Below, one piece after another: positions 1 through 32,762 of a DNA stretch of 44,446 bases. Where the stretch lies: sequence record OR594181; one strand, 5' to 3'. The notes beneath the pieces are model-generated. The model did not search any database, was not told where the DNA came from, and saw only the letters and a program-made list of their open reading frames with translations. The translations under genes and the position numbers were made by a program. This stretch comes from Escherichia phage vB_EcoM_SHAK7704. The stretch's first letter is position 1; each line of letters opens with the position of its first letter.

Positions 1-1896
1 ATGGCTAAGGCAAGAGAATCACAAGCGGAGGCCCTTGCCAGATGGGAGATACTACAGGAGTTACAGCAGACCTTTCCTTACACAGCGGAAGGTTTGCTTC
101 TCTTTGCAGACACAGTTATTCATAACTTAATTGCAGGCAACCCTCATCTGATTCGTATGCAGGCTGATATCTTGAAGTTCCTATTCTACGGACACAAGTA
201 TCGCCTCATCGAAGCGCCTCGTGGTATCGCTAAGACAACACTATCAGCAATCTATACAGTATTCCGTATCATTCATGAACCGCATAAGCGTATCATGGTT
301 GTATCCCAAAACGCCAAGCGAGCAGAGGAAATCGCAGGTTGGGTAGTTAAAATCTTCCGTGGCCTAGACTTTCTTGAGTTTATGCTACCGGACATCTACG
401 CAGGGGACCGTGCCTCAGTTAAGGCATTTGAGATTCATTACACCCTACGTGGCAGTGACAAGTCGCCTTCTGTGTCTTGTTACTCAATCGAAGCAGGTAT
501 GCAGGGTGCGCGTGCAGATATCATCCTAGCAGATGACGTTGAGTCAATGCAGAATGCTCGTACAGCGGCAGGACGTGCCTTGCTTGAGGAACTGACCAAG
601 GAGTTTGAATCTATTAACCAGTTTGGTGATATTATCTACCTTGGTACTCCTCAGAACGTAAACTCTATCTACAATAACCTACCTGCTCGTGGTTACTCTG
701 TTCGTATCTGGACTGCACGTTATCCCTCAGTGGAGCAGGAGCAATGCTATGGTGACTTCCTTGCACCTATGATTGTGCAGGATATGAAGGACAACCCAGC
801 ACTTCGCTCAGGGTATGGCTTGGATGGCAATAGTGGTGCCCCTTGTGCACCTGAAATGTATGATGATGATGTACTGATTGAGAAGGAAATCTCGCAGGGT
901 GCGGCTAAGTTCCAGCTTCAGTTCATGCTTAACACTCGCATGATGGATGCTGACCGCTATCCGCTACGCCTGAACAACCTCATCTTCACTTCATTCGGTA
1001 CAGAGGAAGTCCCTGTGATGCCTACGTGGAGCAATGATTCCATCAATATTATTGGCGATGCACCGAAGTATGGCAATAAGCCTACAGACTTCATGTATCG
1101 ACCTGTGGCTCGCCCGTATGAATGGGGCGCTGTCACTCGTAAGATTATGTATATTGACCCTGCTGGTGGCGGTAAGAATGGGGATGAAACGGGTGTGGCT
1201 ATCGTCTTCCTGCACGGCACATTCATTTACGTGTACCAGTGCTTCGGTGTGCCAGGCGGATATCGCGAATCATCCCTGAATCGCATTGTGCAGGCCGCAA
1301 AGCAGGCGGGTGTTAAAGAGGTATTCATTGAAAAGAACTTTGGTCATGGCGCATTTGAGGCCGTTATAAAGCCATACTTTGAACGAGAGTGGCCTGTGAC
1401 TCTGGAGGAAGATTACGCCACCGGACAGAAAGAGTTGCGTATCATTGAAACACTAGAGCCACTAATGGCGGCCCACAGGCTCATCTTCAACGCAGAGATG
1501 GTCAAGTCTGATTTTGAGTCGGTACAGCGCTATCCGCTTGAACTACGCATGTCATACAGCCTTTTCAATCAAATGTCGAACATCACGATTGAGAAGAACA
1601 GCCTACGACACGATGACCGCTTAGACGCTCTGTATGGTGCTATACGGCAATTAACTTCTCAGATAGACTATGACGAGGTTACACGGATTAATCGCCTCAG
1701 AGCGCAGGAGATGCGCGATTACATCCATGCTATGAACACACCTCACCTCCGTAGGGCAATGCTCTATGGAGATTATGGCACTGAGCGAAGAGTAACCAAC
1801 ACTTCCGTGGCTATGCAGCAAAGAGTATACGGTCAGAATTACAGGAGTAAATCGGCAAGCAGAAATACACTTTCTGCAAGGATTTCAAGGATTTAG
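1..1896 (+). CDS. Terminase large subunit (T7 gp19-like)
   Basis: 631 aa; motifs matching T7 gp19 as recalled (RGIAKT, DKSPSV, ADIILADDVE, IIYLGTPQ, LQFMLN, RYPLRL, HDDRLDAL). Confidence 0.9.
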   Translation: MAKARESQAEALARWEILQELQQTFPYTAEGLLLFADTVIHNLIAGNPHLIRMQADILKFLFYGHKYRLIEAPRGIAKTTLSAIYTVFRIIHEPHKRIMVVSQNAKRAEEIAGWVVKIFRGLDFLEFMLPDIYAGDRASVKAFEIHYTLRGSDKSPSVSCYSIEAGMQGARADIILADDVESMQNARTAAGRALLEELTKEFESINQFGDIIYLGTPQNVNSIYNNLPARGYSVRIWTARYPSVEQEQCYGDFLAPMIVQDMKDNPALRSGYGLDGNSGAPCAPEMYDDDVLIEKEISQGAAKFQLQFMLNTRMMDADRYPLRLNNLIFTSFGTEEVPVMPTWSNDSINIIGDAPKYGNKPTDFMYRPVARPYEWGAVTRKIMYIDPAGGGKNGDETGVAIVFLHGTFIYVYQCFGVPGGYRESSLNRIVQAAKQAGVKEVFIEKNFGHGAFEAVIKPYFEREWPVTLEEDYATGQKELRIIETLEPLMAAHRLIFNAEMVKSDFESVQRYPLELRMSYSLFNQMSNITIEKNSLRHDDRLDALYGAIRQLTSQIDYDEVTRINRLRAQEMRDYIHAMNTPHLRRAMLYGDYGTERRVTNTSVAMQQRVYGQNYRSKSASRNTLSARISRI

Positions 1897-1897
1897 T

Positions 1898-1915
1898 ATT
1901 TACTGGACACTATAG
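1898..1915 (+). promoter_or_regulatory. Phage RNAP promoter ATTTACTGGACACTATAG
   Basis: 18-mer matching the consensus repeated across the window; immediately after the terminase stop. Confidence 0.7.
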
Positions 1916-1991
1916 GAGGAAGACCAAGAGAATAAAGGAATATTATAGGATAATATAGGATTACCTATGTTATATAGGTACACCTTATTAT

Positions 1992-2020
1992 GAGGGTACT
2001 CCTGTACCCTCTTCTTATCT
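1992..2020 (+). terminator. Promoter-proximal hairpin GAGGGTAC-tcct-GTACCCTC followed by T-rich run
   Basis: Perfect 8-bp stem, then ttcttatct; about 80 nt downstream of the promoter +1 and upstream of the 2054 ORF. Confidence 0.4.
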
Positions 2021-2053: not shown

Positions 2054-2335
2054 ATGGCTAATAATTATAGTGATCAACCACTAACAGGTCGATATGATCG
2101 AAAGCAGGAGACACCTGTAAGTGAAGCGTTAATGCTCCCTGTTGTTACAGAGGAGTCTATTAAGAAGAAAGCCAATGTTATCAATGATGCAACCAAATCT
2201 GGTAAACAGAAAGCATCAATGGTGTGTCGTCCTGTAGGTGGCACTCTTGAGATTGCCATTGCTACTGGCAGCAGAGAGGATGCAGATTGGTTGTCTGTTA
2301 AAATGGATGGCGTTGGTCTTATTACACCGGCTTAA
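2054..2335 (+). CDS. Hypothetical protein, paralog A of a three-gene family
   Basis: 93 aa; AAGGAG RBS; shares an INxxxxSGKQ...IAxGS..D.W domain with the next two ORFs. Confidence 0.6.
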   Translation: MANNYSDQPLTGRYDRKQETPVSEALMLPVVTEESIKKKANVINDATKSGKQKASMVCRPVGGTLEIAIATGSREDADWLSVKMDGVGLITPA

Positions 2336-2351
2336 TAAAGGAGAAGATAAT

Positions 2352-2636
2352 ATGTCTAAGTATGGCGATGCAGGTACTACTGGTCAGGCTTTTCGTGTAA
2401 AAGCAGTACAAACTATTGCAACTGCAATCCCTATGCCTATCGTGGCAGAAGCTGACCTTAAAAAGAAAGATCATCCAATTAATATTGAACACCTATCTGG
2501 TAAGCAGAAAGGTGCTATGGTGGTTGTAGATAAAGGAGATAATAGCCTTTATATTGCTATTGCACGTGGTTCTGCACCAACTGACCAGTGGGATGTAACT
2601 ACTATGGAAGCTGTACCTGTAACACCAGGAGCTTAA
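2352..2636 (+). CDS. Hypothetical protein, paralog B
   Basis: 94 aa from ATG 2352 with AAGGAG RBS; same conserved domain as paralogs A and C. Confidence 0.6.
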   Translation: MSKYGDAGTTGQAFRVKAVQTIATAIPMPIVAEADLKKKDHPINIEHLSGKQKGAMVVVDKGDNSLYIAIARGSAPTDQWDVTTMEAVPVTPGA

Positions 2637-2637
2637 T

Positions 2638-3327
2638 ATGCTGGGAGTAACAGGACAACGCAATAAGAATGTAGCCACCAAAGTGGTGGCTGATTTAGCT
2701 ACTGCTGCTACTGTCGAGGAATTACGAAACCAACATAGCTCTATTAACCGTGCTGACCTTTCTGGTAAACAAGAAGGTTCCGCCGTTATTATTAAGAAAG
2801 AAGATGGGAATTATTCTATCTTTGTAGCAACAGGAAGCAAGCCGACTGATGTGTGGAAAGAGTTGTCTCCAACAATACCAGAGCAAGAGATGCCTGCTGA
2901 ATATATTGATATGATTGATGTTCAAATTCATCAAGATTCTGCAAGCAACTTACATATAGACTCTTCTCGCACTAGTTTAATACAAACACCAATGTGGGAT
3001 ACTGAAGGTGAGTTGTTATTCCGTAATACACTAAGTGCAACATGTTCTTGTACTATTCTTGTTGATGGTGCGTCTGGTGTTCGTCAGGATTTTACTTTTA
3101 AGATTAATGGACTTTTAGAGCAGGAAGAGCAGTATTATGATATTGACACACTTATGTGCTCTATTCACTCTGCAACAACAACTAATGGCCTTACCTTGTG
3201 TATGCCAGATGCTAAAAGTGCAAAGACTAATAAAGTGGTAGTTAAGATCGACACTATGCAGTCATTAGCTATGAGCTTTGATCTTAACTTCCTTGTAGAA
3301 TGGACGTCACCAACGAGGTTACTATAA
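2638..3327 (+). CDS. Hypothetical protein, paralog C (family domain plus ~140-aa C-terminal extension)
   Basis: 229 aa; N-terminal domain homologous to A and B; stop overlaps the endolysin start (TAATG). Confidence 0.6.
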   Translation: MLGVTGQRNKNVATKVVADLATAATVEELRNQHSSINRADLSGKQEGSAVIIKKEDGNYSIFVATGSKPTDVWKELSPTIPEQEMPAEYIDMIDVQIHQDSASNLHIDSSRTSLIQTPMWDTEGELLFRNTLSATCSCTILVDGASGVRQDFTFKINGLLEQEEQYYDIDTLMCSIHSATTTNGLTLCMPDAKSAKTNKVVVKIDTMQSLAMSFDLNFLVEWTSPTRLL

Positions 3328-3671
3328 TGCTAAATCAATACTTCAAGCGTAAAGAATTTGCTTGCCGTTGTGGGTGCGGTACATCCACTGTTGATGCTGA
3401 GTTACTACAGGTAGTAACAGATGTGCGTGAGCACTTTGGTACTCCTGTTGTTATCACTTCTGGTCATCGCTGCGCCAAGCACAATGCTAATGTAGGTGGA
3501 GCTAAGAACTCTATGCATCTTACTGGTAAGGCTGCTGACATTAAGGTACGAGGCATCTTACCTTCTGATGTACATAAGTACCTTACTGATAAGTACCAAG
3601 GCAAGTATGGTATTGGTAAATATACCTCCTTTACTCATATTGATGTACGTGACGGGTGTGCACGATGGTAG
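3327..3671 (+). CDS. Endolysin, zinc peptidase M15-like fold
   Basis: 114 aa from ATG 3327 (ORF track starts at 3300 but has no RBS); SGHRC...H...D...H motif; sits beside the spanins. Confidence 0.7.
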   Translation: MLNQYFKRKEFACRCGCGTSTVDAELLQVVTDVREHFGTPVVITSGHRCAKHNANVGGAKNSMHLTGKAADIKVRGILPSDVHKYLTDKYQGKYGIGKYTSFTHIDVRDGCARW

Positions 3672-4245: not shown

Positions 4246-4263
4246 ATTTACTGGACACTATAG
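4246..4263 (+). promoter_or_regulatory. Phage RNAP promoter ATTTACTGGACACTATAG
   Basis: Exact consensus 18-mer upstream of the tailspike genes. Confidence 0.7.
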
Positions 4264-4347
4264 AAGAGATAAGATAGTGCCGTTCTTTTGAGCGGCCTAT
4301 TACTAGCCAATCTTCATAGGGAGGATTGGGAAGTAATAGGAGAGTAT

Positions 4348-4683
4348 ATGGCTAAGTTAACTAAACCCAAGACAACTGGCTTACTACATAGAGATACTGT
4401 ACTAGCTACATTATTGGATAATTTACTATCTAAAAGGCGTGTTACATTTGAAGGTGTAGTTCCAAGTGAAGATACTAAAATTGAGATAGAAGTACCTGCA
4501 ACAGGAGATTTAGATTCTTCGTGGGCATCACTTGTATCATTAAGTACACCTACACTTTGTACAGCTTGGATTACTAAAGTGTCAGATACTAGATTAGAAG
4601 TACATGTGTTCCATACAGCACAAGTTGAAATAGACATAGATGTAGATGTTTACATTCTAGGTAAACACATTGTCAGTGCGTAA
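4348..4683 (+). CDS. Short tailspike-like protein (111 aa) in the second-tailspike position
   Basis: ATG 4348 with GGGAGG/AGGAG RBS; sits directly upstream of the endosialidase, where K1-5-type phages carry a second tailspike. Confidence 0.5.
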   Translation: MAKLTKPKTTGLLHRDTVLATLLDNLLSKRRVTFEGVVPSEDTKIEIEVPATGDLDSSWASLVSLSTPTLCTAWITKVSDTRLEVHVFHTAQVEIDIDVDVYILGKHIVSA

Positions 4684-4750: not shown

Positions 4751-7186
4751 ATGATTCAAAGACTAGGTTCTTCATTAGTTAAATTCAAGAGTAAAATAGC
4801 AGGTGCAATCTGGCGTAACTTGGATGACAAGCTCACCGAGGTTGTATCGCTTAAAGATTTTGGAGCCAAAGGTGATGGTAAGACAAACGACCAAGATGCA
4901 GTAAATGCAGCGATGGCTTCAGGTAAGAGAATTGACGGTGCTGGTGCTACTTACAAAGTATCATCTTTACCTGATATGGAGCGATTCTATAACACCCGCT
5001 TCGTATGGGAACGTTTAGCAGGTCAACCTCTTTACTATGTGAGTAAAGGTTTTATCAATGGTGAACTATATAAAATCACGGATAACCCTTATTACAATGC
5101 TTGGCCTCAAGACAAAGCGTTTGTATATGAGAACGTGATATATGCACCTTACATGGGTAGTGACCGTCATGGTGTTAGTCGTCTGCATGTATCATGGGTT
5201 AAGTCTGGTGACGATGGTCAAACATGGTCTACTCCAGAGTGGTTAACTGATCTGCATCCAGATTACCCTACAGTGAACTATCATTGTATGAGTATGGGTG
5301 TATGTCGCAACCGTCTGTTTGCCATGATTGAAACACGTACTTTAGCCAAGAACGAACTAACCAATTGTGCATTGTGGGATCGTCCTATGTCTCGTAGTCT
5401 GCATCTTACTGGTGGTATCACTAAGGCTGCAAATCAGCGTTATGCAACAATCCATGTACCTGATCACGGATTATTCGTGGGCGATTTTGTTAGCTTCTCT
5501 AATTCTGCGGTAACAGGTGTAACTGGTGATATGAAAGTTGCAACAGTTATAGATAAGGACAACTTCACGGTTCTTACAGCCAATCAGCAGACCTCTGATT
5601 TGAACAATGCTGGAAAGAATTGGCACATGGGCACTTCCTTCCATAAGTCTCCATGGCGTAAGACAGATCTTGGCCTGATACCTCGTGTTACTGAAGTTCA
5701 TAGCTTTGCTACTATTGATAACAATGGCTTTGTTATGGGTTATCACCAAGGCGACGTAGCTCCACGCGAAGTTGGTCTTTTCTACTTCCCTGATGCTTTT
5801 AACAATCCATCTAATTATGTTCGTCGTCAGATACCATCTGAGTACGAACCGGATGCGGCAGAGCCATGCATCAAGTACTATGACGGTGTGTTATACCTTA
5901 TCACTCGTGGTACTCGTGGTGACAGGCTTGGAAGCTCTTTGCATCGCAGTAGAGATATAGGTCAAACTTGGGAGTCACTAAGATTTCCACATAATGTGCA
6001 TCATACTACTTTACCGTTTGCTAAGGTAGGAGATGATCTTATTATGTTTGGTTCAGAACGTGCAGAAAATGAATGGGAAGCAGGTGCACCTGATGATCGT
6101 TACAAGGCATCTTATCCCCGCACCTTCTATGCACGATTGAATGTAAACAAGTGGAGTGCAGATGACATTGAATGGGTTAACATCACAGACCAAATCTATC
6201 AGGGTGACATTGTTAACTCCAGTGTAGGTGTAGGTTCGGTGGTAGTTAAAGATAGTTACATTTACTATATCTTTGGTGGTGAAAACCATTTCAACCCAAT
6301 GACTTATGGTGACAACAAAGATAAAGACCCATTTATTGGACATGGACACCCTACTGATATATACTGCTATAAGATGCAGATTGCAAATGACAGTCGTGTA
6401 TCTCGTAAGTTTACATATGGTGCAACTCCTGGTCAGGCTATACCTACTTTCATGGGTACTGATGGTATTCGCACTATTCCTGCTCCACTTCACTTATCAG
6501 GAGAGGTAGTTGCCGCAGATATGACTGTCGAACACCTTACCTTGAAGGCAAGTACAAGTGCTAATATTCGCTCAGAGATGCTGATGGAAGGTGAATATGG
6601 GTTCATTGGTAAGACTATACCAACGGATAACCCAACCGCCCAACGTGTTATCATCTCTGGTGGAGAGGGTACAGCAGCAGATACCGGTGCGCAAATTACC
6701 TTACATGGAGCAGGTTCTAGCACTTCTAGACGCGCAGTATATAATGCCAATGAGCACTTGTTCCAAAGTGGAGCTATCATGCCATACAATGATAACGTGT
6801 ATCCTGCTGGCGGCCCTCGTAATAGATTCACTACTATCCATCTTACAAGTGACCCTATTATTACGTCTGATGCCACTCATAAGTATGGATCACAAGGTAT
6901 TGATGAGAGTGTACTAAAGGCATGGGGTAAGGTTAGCTTCAAGCAGTACAAGTTGATTGGTGAGATGTCTCGTGGTGTGCACCACACTCACTTTGGTGTA
7001 TTGGCACAAGACATTGTAGCTGCTTTTGCATCCGAAGGGTTAGATGCAATCGACTTCGGCATTGTCTCCTTCGAAGAAGGTCAGTTTGGTGTTAGATATA
7101 GTGAAATCTTAATCTTGGAGGCTGCTTATACTCGCTATCGTTTAGACAAGTTAGAGGAGATGTATGCCACTAATAAAAGCAGTTAA
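4751..7186 (+). CDS. Endosialidase tailspike (endo-N-acetylneuraminidase) with C-terminal intramolecular chaperone domain
   Basis: 811 aa; sequence recalled as near-identical to K1E/K1-5 endosialidase; C-terminal chaperone-domain motifs; strong AAAGGAGG RBS. Confidence 0.9.
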   Translation: MIQRLGSSLVKFKSKIAGAIWRNLDDKLTEVVSLKDFGAKGDGKTNDQDAVNAAMASGKRIDGAGATYKVSSLPDMERFYNTRFVWERLAGQPLYYVSKGFINGELYKITDNPYYNAWPQDKAFVYENVIYAPYMGSDRHGVSRLHVSWVKSGDDGQTWSTPEWLTDLHPDYPTVNYHCMSMGVCRNRLFAMIETRTLAKNELTNCALWDRPMSRSLHLTGGITKAANQRYATIHVPDHGLFVGDFVSFSNSAVTGVTGDMKVATVIDKDNFTVLTANQQTSDLNNAGKNWHMGTSFHKSPWRKTDLGLIPRVTEVHSFATIDNNGFVMGYHQGDVAPREVGLFYFPDAFNNPSNYVRRQIPSEYEPDAAEPCIKYYDGVLYLITRGTRGDRLGSSLHRSRDIGQTWESLRFPHNVHHTTLPFAKVGDDLIMFGSERAENEWEAGAPDDRYKASYPRTFYARLNVNKWSADDIEWVNITDQIYQGDIVNSSVGVGSVVVKDSYIYYIFGGENHFNPMTYGDNKDKDPFIGHGHPTDIYCYKMQIANDSRVSRKFTYGATPGQAIPTFMGTDGIRTIPAPLHLSGEVVAADMTVEHLTLKASTSANIRSEMLMEGEYGFIGKTIPTDNPTAQRVIISGGEGTAADTGAQITLHGAGSSTSRRAVYNANEHLFQSGAIMPYNDNVYPAGGPRNRFTTIHLTSDPIITSDATHKYGSQGIDESVLKAWGKVSFKQYKLIGEMSRGVHHTHFGVLAQDIVAAFASEGLDAIDFGIVSFEEGQFGVRYSEILILEAAYTRYRLDKLEEMYATNKSS

Positions 7187-10702: not shown

Positions 10703-11587
10703 ATGACTACTGAAAACACCCTCCTGTCTGTCCGCGAAGCTGCAACCGCTGAGATTAAGCAGCATTTGGATAATATCGGCACTTCTTACATCAAAGTAGG
10801 TGCTTGTCTGAATGAGTTACGCGGAGACTTCGAAGGTCAAAAAGAGTTCTTAGCCTATGTTGAAGCAGAGTTCGGCATCAAGAAAGCACAATGCTACAAG
10901 CTGATGAGTGTAGCCCGTGTCTTTGAAGGTGACGAACGATTCAAAGGCGTGGCTATGCGTGTAATGCTGGCGCTTGTTCCTTTCGCTGATGAGAGTATCA
11001 TCATGGAGAAGGCCGCAGAACTTGCCGCAGAGGGCAAGCTGGACACTAACGCCGTAAACGCCCTAATTGAGTCTAAGAAAGAGCCAAAGGCCGAGACGGT
11101 ACAATCTAAGGCTGAGCCAGTAAAACCGCAGGAGAACGCGGCTGAGGCCGCAGAATCACAGGAAACGCAAGCGCCGCAGGTAGTGCCGCCAATGAGTGAG
11201 CCGGACACCGACGAATCCGCACCGTGGGAGGGCGAAAGCAAGCCGGAAGCACCTAAGGCTGCGCCTCTGGACAACACTGCTAACACAGAGAACGCCGCCA
11301 TGGCTGGCCTGTTGGCACAAATTAAGGCACTGACTGAGCAATTACAGGCGGCTAACGACCGCATCGCAGCTCTAACCAGTGCACGTGAAAGCAAGAAGGC
11401 AGCCGCGCCTATGCTCCCACAATTCAAATCCAAATGTTTCTATGCTCGCTTGGGTTTGAGTGCTGAGGAGGCAGAGAAGAAAACAGCAGTGAACAAGGCA
11501 CGCCGCGAACTGGTTAAACTGGGATACGGTGAAGGCCATGAGGCATGGCCCTTAATCTCTGAGGCAGTAGAAGAATTAACTAAGTAA
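10703..11587 (+). CDS. Early hypothetical protein with Pro/Glu/Ala/Lys-rich linker
   Basis: ATG 10703 after AAGG; globular N-terminal ~120 aa, low-complexity middle, conserved-looking C-terminal ~60 aa; directly upstream of the RNAP gene. Confidence 0.6.
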   Translation: MTTENTLLSVREAATAEIKQHLDNIGTSYIKVGACLNELRGDFEGQKEFLAYVEAEFGIKKAQCYKLMSVARVFEGDERFKGVAMRVMLALVPFADESIIMEKAAELAAEGKLDTNAVNALIESKKEPKAETVQSKAEPVKPQENAAEAAESQETQAPQVVPPMSEPDTDESAPWEGESKPEAPKAAPLDNTANTENAAMAGLLAQIKALTEQLQAANDRIAALTSARESKKAAAPMLPQFKSKCFYARLGLSAEEAEKKTAVNKARRELVKLGYGEGHEAWPLISEAVEELTK

Positions 11588-31553: not shown

Positions 31554-32762
31554 ATGAGCACCCCGAATAACCTGACCAACGTTGCAGTCTCCGCTTCCGG
31601 CGAGGTAGACAGCCTTCTCATTGAGAAATTCAATGGCAAGGTAAATGAGCAGTACCTGAAAGGTGAGAACATCATGTCCTACTTTGATGTTCAGACTGTT
31701 ACTGGTACTAACACTGTAAGCAACAAATATTTGGGTGAAACCGAGTTGCAGGTTCTGGCACCGGGGCAGTCTCCGGCTGCAACTTCTACTCAGGCCGATA
31801 AAAACCAACTGGTAATCGATGCCACTGTTATTGCTCGTAACACAGTTGCTCACCTGCATGATGTACAGGGTGACATTGATAGCCTGAAGCCGAAGCTGGC
31901 TACTAACCAAGCTAAGCAGCTTAAGAAGATGGAAGATGAAATGCTGATTCAGCAGATGCTGCTGGGCGGTATTGCTAACACTCAGGCTAAGCGTACTAAT
32001 CCGCGTGTTAAAGGCCATGGCTTCTCTGTCAACGTAGAAGTTGCAGAAAGTGAAGCACTGGTCAACCCGCAGTATGTAATGGCGGCTGTAGAGTTTGCTC
32101 TTGAGCAGCAGCTTGAGCAGGAAGTAGACATCTCTGATGTGGCTATCCTGATGCCGTGGCGCTACTTCAACGTACTGCGTGATGCAGACCGTATCGTTGA
32201 CAAGAGCTACACCATTAGCCAGTCTGGTGCAACCATTCAGGGTTTTGTTCTGTCTTCTTACAACTGCCCTGTTATCCCGTCTAACCGCTTCCCTAAATTC
32301 TCTGCGGGTCAGAAACATCACCTGCTGTCAAATGAAGACAACGGTTATCGTTATGACCCGACTGCAGAAATGAATGGCGCTATCGCTGTACTGTTCACAG
32401 CTGACGCTCTTCTTGTTGGCCGTTCAATTGATGTAACAGGTGATATCTTCTATGAGAAGAAAGAGAAGACCTATTACATTGACACCTTTATGTCTGAAGG
32501 TGCAATCCCTGACCGTTGGGAGGCAGTGTCTGTAGTTACCACCAAGCGAGAGACAAATGGCACGCCTACCTCTACTGCAACTCAGGCTGCACAGCATACT
32601 CAGGTTCTGAACCGTGCACAGCGTAAGGCGGTGTATGTCAAGAGCGCTAACCCGGCAGGTGCTTTCGCTGCTGCTAGCTTGTCTGCTGAAGACTTGGTTG
32701 CTGCTGTACGTGCAGTGATGGCTAATGACATTAAGCCGACTGCAATGAAACCTGCTGAGTAA
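31554..32762 (+). CDS. Major capsid protein
   Basis: 402 aa; strong AAGGAGG RBS; own promoter and downstream terminator; highly-expressed-type codon usage. Confidence 0.85.
   Translation: MSTPNNLTNVAVSASGEVDSLLIEKFNGKVNEQYLKGENIMSYFDVQTVTGTNTVSNKYLGETELQVLAPGQSPAATSTQADKNQLVIDATVIARNTVAHLHDVQGDIDSLKPKLATNQAKQLKKMEDEMLIQQMLLGGIANTQAKRTNPRVKGHGFSVNVEVAESEALVNPQYVMAAVEFALEQQLEQEVDISDVAILMPWRYFNVLRDADRIVDKSYTISQSGATIQGFVLSSYNCPVIPSNRFPKFSAGQKHHLLSNEDNGYRYDPTAEMNGAIAVLFTADALLVGRSIDVTGDIFYEKKEKTYYIDTFMSEGAIPDRWEAVSVVTTKRETNGTPTSTATQAAQHTQVLNRAQRKAVYVKSANPAGAFAAASLSAEDLVAAVRAVMANDIKPTAMKPAE

Follow-up and report, generated by a model that had tools for sequence, protein, structure and literature searches.

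Directly behind the large terminase gene of Escherichia phage vB_EcoM_SHAK7704 (record OR594181) lie three consecutive open reading frames (ORFs), here ORF1, ORF2 and ORF3, which are followed by an endolysin gene (Table 1). The window, meaning the whole stretch of 44,446 nucleotides that was analysed, is a circularly permuted genome of an SP6-like, K1E-like coliphage and begins at the large terminase gene. The three ORFs are true tandem paralogs that share one domain, which we name D, and on the reading favoured here their family, which is widespread, misannotated and structurally uncharacterised, is of the phage head decoration or fibre kind. We hold it to be probable, with moderate confidence, that D is a trimer-forming virion anchor, most likely for the capsid, with ORF1 and ORF2 as bare decoration subunits and ORF3 as an optional head fibre. 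An earlier note on this DNA had concluded that a function could not be assigned; with orthologs reported in virions, and with the domains that other family members append to D, such a role can now be proposed. The proposal is supported by the orthology of ORF1-ORF3 to virion proteins of phage Kp7 and by the fibre- and decoration-type domains added to D elsewhere; by a dedicated phage promoter, Shine-Dalgarno sites, a place in the late structural and lysis region, and ratios of nonsynonymous to synonymous substitution rates (dN/dS) of 0.13-0.33; and by the absence from ORF1-ORF3 of transmembrane segments and of any enzyme or other family match.

The three paralogs and their shared domain

Pairwise BLASTP aligns ORF1 with ORF2 (E = 6e-13, 38% identity across 87 amino acids), ORF2 with ORF3 (E = 2e-12, 38% across 73 amino acids) and ORF1 with ORF3 (E = 2e-6, 31% across 71 amino acids), which confirms the three consecutive tandem paralogs that the earlier note had described. 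The motif on which that description was based is significant on formal alignment and is found in all three proteins as IN...SGKQ.G..V...A.GS....W. The shared domain had been put at about 50 amino acids; the homology holds, while the length does not, since D reaches about 80-90 amino acids. Residues N44, S49, G50, K51, Q52, V57, A70, G72, S73 and W79 are invariant across ORF1-ORF3, and the invariant positions span about 80 residues when an N-terminal TG(Q/R) motif is included. D homology covers essentially all of ORF1 and ORF2, and the third gene does carry the extra C-terminal region that had been noticed, an addition of about 150 residues beyond D. Each of the three genes is preceded by a Shine-Dalgarno sequence. 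ORF2 is taken to start at its ATG, as the program-listed GTG start at 2238 would run into ORF1. The gap between ORF2 and ORF3 is a single base (TAA-T-ATG), and the stop codon of ORF3 overlaps the endolysin start in the sequence TAATG, in agreement with the earlier description of the two genes as translationally coupled. All three genes are under purifying selection, and are thus real coding genes.

A structure model of ORF3, built from a 30-sequence alignment with a mean predicted local distance difference test score (pLDDT) of 70.6, has a disordered N-terminal arm (amino acids 1-20) that nonetheless bears invariant residues, a small alpha/beta D core (amino acids 21-76, pLDDT 80-88) and a beta-sandwich C-domain (amino acids 94-224). 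The predicted secondary structure of D comprises three beta-strands and two helices of 4-5 residues. No transmembrane or signal segment was found in ORF1-ORF3, where the maximum 19-residue Kyte-Doolittle hydropathy is at or below 1.13.

The name under which these genes circulate is a different one. In the PHROGs database, ORF1 (E = 9e-37) and ORF2 (E = 6e-43) fall into phrog_2725, labelled "acetyl-CoA acetyltransferase", and ORF3 (E = 5e-121) into phrog_32357, listed as function unknown. The thiolase label is carried by many GenBank and RefSeq records, SP6 gp42 and gp43 and K1E gp42 among them, and this propagated label is what speaks for ORF1-ORF3 being thiolases, a reading with next to no chance of being correct. 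Thiolases are about 390 amino acids long, whereas ORF1 and ORF2 have 93-94, and Pfam and NCBIfam scans of ORF1-ORF3 return no family match, with a thiolase domain absent even at E ≤ 1; the acetyl-CoA acetyltransferase assignment was rejected on both grounds. This corrects a widely propagated misannotation of a post-terminase family in SP6-like and other Autographiviridae phages, whose hosts include Escherichia, Klebsiella, Salmonella, Proteus, Pectobacterium, Aeromonas, Vibrio, Pseudomonas and Ralstonia. D has no relative in Pfam or among solved structures: sequence searches of the PDB with the single proteins and with the D profile (E ≤ 10) return chance matches only.

Domain architectures and the proposed virion anchor

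A profile search with D over 1.84 billion cluster representatives returns 260 proteins at E ≤ 1e-3, one of which, a 1335-amino-acid SprB-repeat protein (P0264), is spurious. ORF2 has 106 homolog clusters at 60-96% identity, and tblastn places D in 179 phage records, with hosts in Escherichia, Klebsiella, Salmonella, Proteus, Vibrio, Pseudomonas, Pectobacterium, Edwardsiella and Aeromonas. Every fetched locus has at least one D gene immediately behind the large terminase, as in the window, Kp7, SP6, K1E, POP72, H01, Koku, EC120, Tola and the metagenomic contigs L005 and L020; Ralstonia phage Reminis has a second D copy, joined to a knob, behind its tailspike gene. The earlier note had proposed comparing copy number across SP6-like phages, and a hidden Markov model scan of the fetched loci gives two to four D copies: three in the window, SP6 (gp42, gp43, gp44), POP72 and Kp7, two in K1E, EC120 and Tola, and four in Klebsiella phage H01. 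The D array is able to exceed three genes, as the last of these (vB_Kp_H01, locus L010, 2206-4028) has four successive D genes of 88, 88, 178 and 238 amino acids, two of them with differing C-terminal extensions. In a neighbour-joining tree of D domains, positions 1 and 2 form orthogroups that are conserved across Molineuxvirinae, and position 3 is heterogeneous.

What accompanies D varies widely. D alone makes up proteins of about 85-100 amino acids, and three tandem D units occur in single chains of 260-320 amino acids (P0127-P0139, P0275 and others), where repeats 1, 2 and 3 are each orthologous among the closely related fused proteins P0127, P0129 and P0275. The gene for P0275 stands immediately behind a T7-type terminase in a 44.8-kb Autographiviridae-like contig, and two further three-D chains (P0186, P0200) have an additional C-terminal domain. 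Other members join D to an immunoglobulin (Ig) domain (Kp7 gp47, P0214), to a collagen triple helix and a beta domain (P0205, PF01391 E = 1e-13), to an Sf6-type tail-needle knob (P0237, E = 5e-43; P0181, E = 1.7e-30) or to a phi29 head-fibre motif (Aeromonas phage Tola gp63, PF11133 at 27.9 bits, 51% identity to gp8.5 residues 225-271), and several more carry other distal domains without a family assignment. The Ig domain of Kp7 gp47 matches two PDB "Decoration protein" chains, 8zvi (E = 6e-17) and 5lxk (E = 2.8e-16), the latter of which we take to be the C-terminal domain of T5 pb10. The D-collagen gene is at position 3, behind two genes of about 95 amino acids that come after the terminase.

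Three of these add-ons, collagen, the Sf6 knob and the phi29 fibre motif, form trimers in the proteins where they have been characterised. Taken with the three-D chains, this leads us to infer that D functions as a trimer. Such chains show that D units which are not identical are also able to work together in threes, and the D-collagen relative implies that position-3 proteins can homotrimerise. In the AlphaFold2 model of P0275 (predicted template modelling score 0.74), the three D units are predicted to pack against each other. A family without a Pfam or structural relative is in this way given a clear hypothesis for its oligomeric state.

Two metagenomic loci add observations of another kind. 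A 122-amino-acid protein, P0244 (locus L013, 114-482), known from one 2.6-kb contig, consists of D and an Acb2/Tad1 hairpin domain whose match exceeds the Pfam cut-off (PF24729 E = 7.8e-11); it may be a true fusion with a sponge module directed against Thoeris and the cyclic-oligonucleotide-based antiphage signalling system (CBASS), or a deletion product of neighbouring genes. In the 44.8-kb contig (L005), two features follow the three-D gene: a Tad2-like gene (PF11195, 12141-12410), four genes downstream, and a short ORF (11007-11453) with part of a fourth D (profile positions 49-85, E = 1e-6).

The link to the virion comes from phage Kp7 (ON148527), whose gene order is terminase, gp45 (88 amino acids), gp46 (88 amino acids), gp47 (178 amino acids) and endolysin. 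BLASTP pairs ORF1 with gp45 (E = 1e-17), ORF2 with gp46 (E = 6e-20) and the N-domain of ORF3 with that of gp47 (E = 3e-7). In GenBank, gp45 and gp46 are labelled "minor capsid protein" and gp47 "minor capsid protein with Ig-domain", and the Kp7 preprint, which identified the proteins of purified virions by mass spectrometry and BLAST, reports the minor capsid proteins to be gp32, gp45, gp46 and gp47 (10.1101/2024.05.19.594906). This brief statement is the sole experimental evidence found for the D family; in literature on Morganella phage MP2, Pectobacterium phage PP99 and Aeromonas phage Tola, no proteomic data on the D genes were found.

Under the proposed mechanism, ORF1-ORF3 would be late-expressed structural proteins on the virion exterior, most probably on a T=7 capsid. 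D, as a small alpha/beta module whose N-terminal arm is conserved and probably flexible, would trimerise and fix the protein to the particle. ORF1 and ORF2, which would be the anchor and nothing else, may act as cement or decoration subunits. ORF3 would combine the same anchor with a distal beta-sandwich knob of the kind seen at the tips of trimeric viral fibres, and as an optional head fibre it could attach to a surface glycan and help the phage to adsorb, as has been proposed for T4 Hoc, T5 pb10, N4 gp17 and phi29 gp8.5. A position-3 protein that is non-essential and that nature exchanges between bare, Ig, collagen and knob forms would suit capsid display and engineering in K1-capsule-specific therapeutic phages, and may also contribute to adsorption.

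A more elaborate version can be outlined, though we think it rather unlikely. A T=7 shell has 60 local 3-fold positions beside pentons, 60 general hexon-only positions and 20 strict ones. The paralogs might share out these classes, either as site-specialised trimers or as a 1:1:1 heterotrimer equivalent to the three-D chains, and ORF3 might be an exchangeable head-borne lectin knob for host surface polysaccharide that measurably changes adsorption or host range. If true, the array would be a modular "head-fibre cassette" system whose anchor fold had not been described before.

Evolutionary behaviour and alternative explanations

Measured against four relatives, dN/dS is 0.13-0.33 for ORF1 (except for the closest pair, with SHAK7163, where it is 0.90 at a dS of 0.016), 0.14-0.26 for ORF2, 0.23-0.30 for ORF3 and 0.04-0.25 for the endolysin. 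At the nucleotide level the array region is 96-97% identical to Escherichia phages EEc2, SHAK7163 and others. Most window proteins are 96-100% identical to their K1E counterparts in amino acid sequence, as for the terminase (99.6-99.7%), portal, DNA polymerase and adaptor (99% each), Rz-like protein (97%) and major capsid protein (96%); the tailspike (90%), endolysin and ORF2 (83% each) are lower, and ORF1, at 59%, is the most divergent of the proteins compared (83-100% in the others). ORF2 is the best conserved of the three paralogs. ORF3 is missing in K1E and EC120; relative to these, a precise 676-nucleotide insertion separates the ORF2 stop from the endolysin start in the window, making ORF3 a clean presence/absence cassette. 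The nearest counterparts of ORF1 and ORF2 (93% and 91% identity) are in Klebsiella phage Koku, the remaining proteins of which are 43-90% identical. The array is therefore a mosaic hot spot swapped by recombination, and this mosaic block has no elevated dN/dS. The suggestion in the earlier note of a fast-evolving host-interaction module thus holds in part: ORF1 is the most divergent protein, ORF3 is a cassette and the distal domains at position 3 vary, but selection on each of the three genes is purifying, and the orthogroups at positions 1 and 2 are conserved.

Several points weigh against a place on the head. For SHAK7704 itself, the role of ORF1-ORF3 is proposed from sequence, and capsid binding is not readable from the fold of D, as D has no solved-structure relative. 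The Kp7 support consists of a short preprint statement and a depositor label, in which "minor capsid protein" may be a loose term for any small virion protein. Two D copies suffice in K1E and EC120 and four are present in H01, and the paralogs may form homotrimers or heterotrimers. Across seven genomes (21 pairs), the Spearman correlation of identity with the major capsid protein is 0.19 for ORF1 and 0.60 for ORF2, which is no stronger than with other proteins; the best correlate of their divergence is the adjacent endolysin, owing to linkage, and the lack of capsid co-variation neither supports nor excludes capsid binding. The Reminis D-knob gene beside a tailspike gene would also fit a tail location.

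This last arrangement belongs to the case for tail-associated accessory fibres, in which D would anchor to the tail or the tailspike adaptor and ORF3 would form a small side fibre. Such a role is improbable, even with an array about 1.4 kb or less from the window's tailspike gene and with distal domains of the tail-fibre, needle-knob and receptor-binding type in the family, for a fibre role sits badly with the complete lack of a distal domain in the fused three-D proteins and in two of the three paralogs. The Ig and phi29 head-fibre add-ons are typical of head decoration, the Kp7 depositors label gp45-gp47 as capsid proteins and list the tail proteins apart, and D is unlike the N-terminus of the window's tailspike, as judged by reading the sequence. 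The earlier note had raised an anti-defence module; on that reading the proteins would be small, diversifying and non-structural and would counter host immunity or serve host takeover. The divergence of ORF1 from K1E, the mosaic block with its Koku-like ORF1 and ORF2, the D-Acb2/Tad1 fusion and the Tad2-like gene near a three-D gene in one contig speak for such a module, but the array lies in the late rather than the early region, behind a phage promoter, and purified Kp7 virions are reported to contain the orthologs. What is appended to D are fibre and decoration modules, selection is purifying, positions 1 and 2 are conserved orthogroups, and the P0244 fusion could stem from a deletion that joined neighbours, so that an anti-defence array is highly improbable.

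The overlap of the ORF3 stop with the endolysin start, and the position of the array immediately ahead of the lysis genes in SP6-like phages, invite the thought that the three proteins are lysis accessory or regulatory proteins co-translated with the endolysin. We give this very little credence and rejected it for the lack of a transmembrane segment and for inconsistent synteny: the Reminis D-knob gene is away from the endolysin, and the neighbours of the fused three-D gene have no recorded lysis-family match in their contig. Collagen, Ig and knob additions would moreover be senseless for a cytoplasmic lysis regulator. Head decoration, with ORF3 as an optional fibre, remains the reading that we favour.

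Genome context and comparison with known systems

The coordinates of the features are collected in Table 1. The promoter behind the terminase stop codon fits the consensus TTAC(T/C)GGACACTATAG(G/A)A for a phage RNA polymerase, which has 10 matches in the window, all on the plus strand, against 0.03 expected by chance; assigned from its position, it probably drives ORF1-ORF3 and the lysis genes. A further site, at 4248, sits ahead of the gp46-like gene and the tailspike gene. Between the first promoter and ORF1, the leader contains a G+C-rich hairpin with a T-rich tail that folds as RNA at -15.4 kcal/mol (z = -3.4); it could terminate transcripts from upstream, or else act in RNA processing or stabilisation.

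Table 1. Coordinates of the array, its expression signals and neighbouring features in the window
Feature	Position	Strand	Remarks
Large terminase gene	1-1896		precedes the ORF1-ORF3 array
Phage RNA polymerase promoter	1900-1917	+	TTACTGGACACTATAGGA; right behind the terminase stop codon
Promoter sites (10), start positions	1900, 4248, 14372, 16900, 21321, 22090, 23236, 26404, 31485, 44241	+	matches to the consensus
Hairpin	1992-2011	+	G+C-rich, then T-rich tail; terminator-like scan match
ORF1	2054-2335	+	position-1 paralog, 93 amino acids, D only; AAGGAG ribosome-binding site
ORF2	2352-2636	+	position-2 paralog, 94 amino acids, D only; AAGGAG ribosome-binding site before the ATG at 2352
ORF3	2638-3327	+	position-3 paralog, 229 amino acids, D and C-terminal domain
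D of ORF3	2638-2877		about amino acids 1-80
C-terminal beta-sandwich of ORF3	2917-3309		about amino acids 94-224
ORF3 stop/endolysin start overlap	3325-3329		TAATG
Endolysin gene	3327-3671	+	Peptidase_M15_3, PF08291 E = 1.2e-32; outside the paralog family
gp46-like small ORF	4288-4683		ahead of the tailspike gene
Tailspike gene	4751-7186		similar to K1E endosialidase gp47
Terminal-repeat counterpart	7281-7531		matches both ends of the linear K1E genome
Major capsid protein gene	31554-32762		96% amino acid identity to K1E

A number of observations concern the genome as a whole. Its terminal-repeat counterpart matches both ends of linear K1E (17-287 and 44980-45250; 83% identity), which makes the window a linear K1E-like genome in circularly permuted form. 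Identity to the K1E endosialidase gp47 is 90% for the tailspike, and identity to K1E gp46 is 97% for the small ORF ahead of it; from this closeness SHAK7704 is probably K1-capsule-specific. In K1E, the large terminase gene is interrupted by the HNH homing-endonuclease gene gp40.5 (locus L008, 788-1321) at the equivalent of window nucleotides 1167/1168, where the window's gene is intact; nucleotide identity to K1E is 99.7% ahead of this point and 86% beyond it, with the terminase protein still above 99%. The record of Klebsiella phage Koku (locus L014, 1605-2681) lists a minus-strand "hypothetical protein" where tblastn places a plus-strand major capsid protein, from 1635 and 88% identical to that of the window, which looks like a gene-calling error.

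Among known systems, T5 pb10 and T4 Hoc resemble the proposed ORF3 in pairing an anchor domain with an exposed, non-essential distal domain. Both are monomers at hexamer centres. The trimeric fibre phi29 gp8.5 has its N-terminal base at quasi-3-fold positions of the capsid, and Tola gp63 couples D to a gp8.5-like fibre motif; the Pfam scan found no PF11133 in ORF1, ORF2 or ORF3, and homology of D itself to gp8.5 was rejected (hhalign probability 0.2%).

Kp7 has a matching arrangement of genes, with the same order of terminase, short, short and long genes and M15 endolysin, and with three D paralogs of which the third is extended. Positions 1 and 2 are only 41-48% identical to ORF1 and ORF2, and the distal domains differ: the Pfam scan finds no Ig domain in ORF3, unlike Kp7 gp47, and in its place is an unrelated beta-sandwich knob of about 135 amino acids. 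A Kp7 capsid structure with gp45-gp47 is absent from the PDB copy searched.

The alpha-claw/alpha-paw pairs of Autographiviridae-type podophages (PhiM1 gp44/gp43, HRP29/Buco gp47/gp48 and Ar-KM gp55/gp54) are built differently from D. They are helical dimers, with a helix-turn-helix and a four-helix bundle, at 2-fold sites, while D, which appears trimeric, is predicted to consist mainly of beta structure along with short helices and has no sequence match to them. Membership of D in that group was rejected, as its predicted secondary structure is not helix-turn-helix and the PDB searches gave no sequence match. The division of labour is nonetheless alike, in that the short paralog consists of the capsid-binding motif only and the long paralog adds a protruding arm or spike, both on a T=7 podophage head. 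By analogy, these pairs are the closest functional counterpart within podophages to the roles proposed here for ORF1-ORF3.

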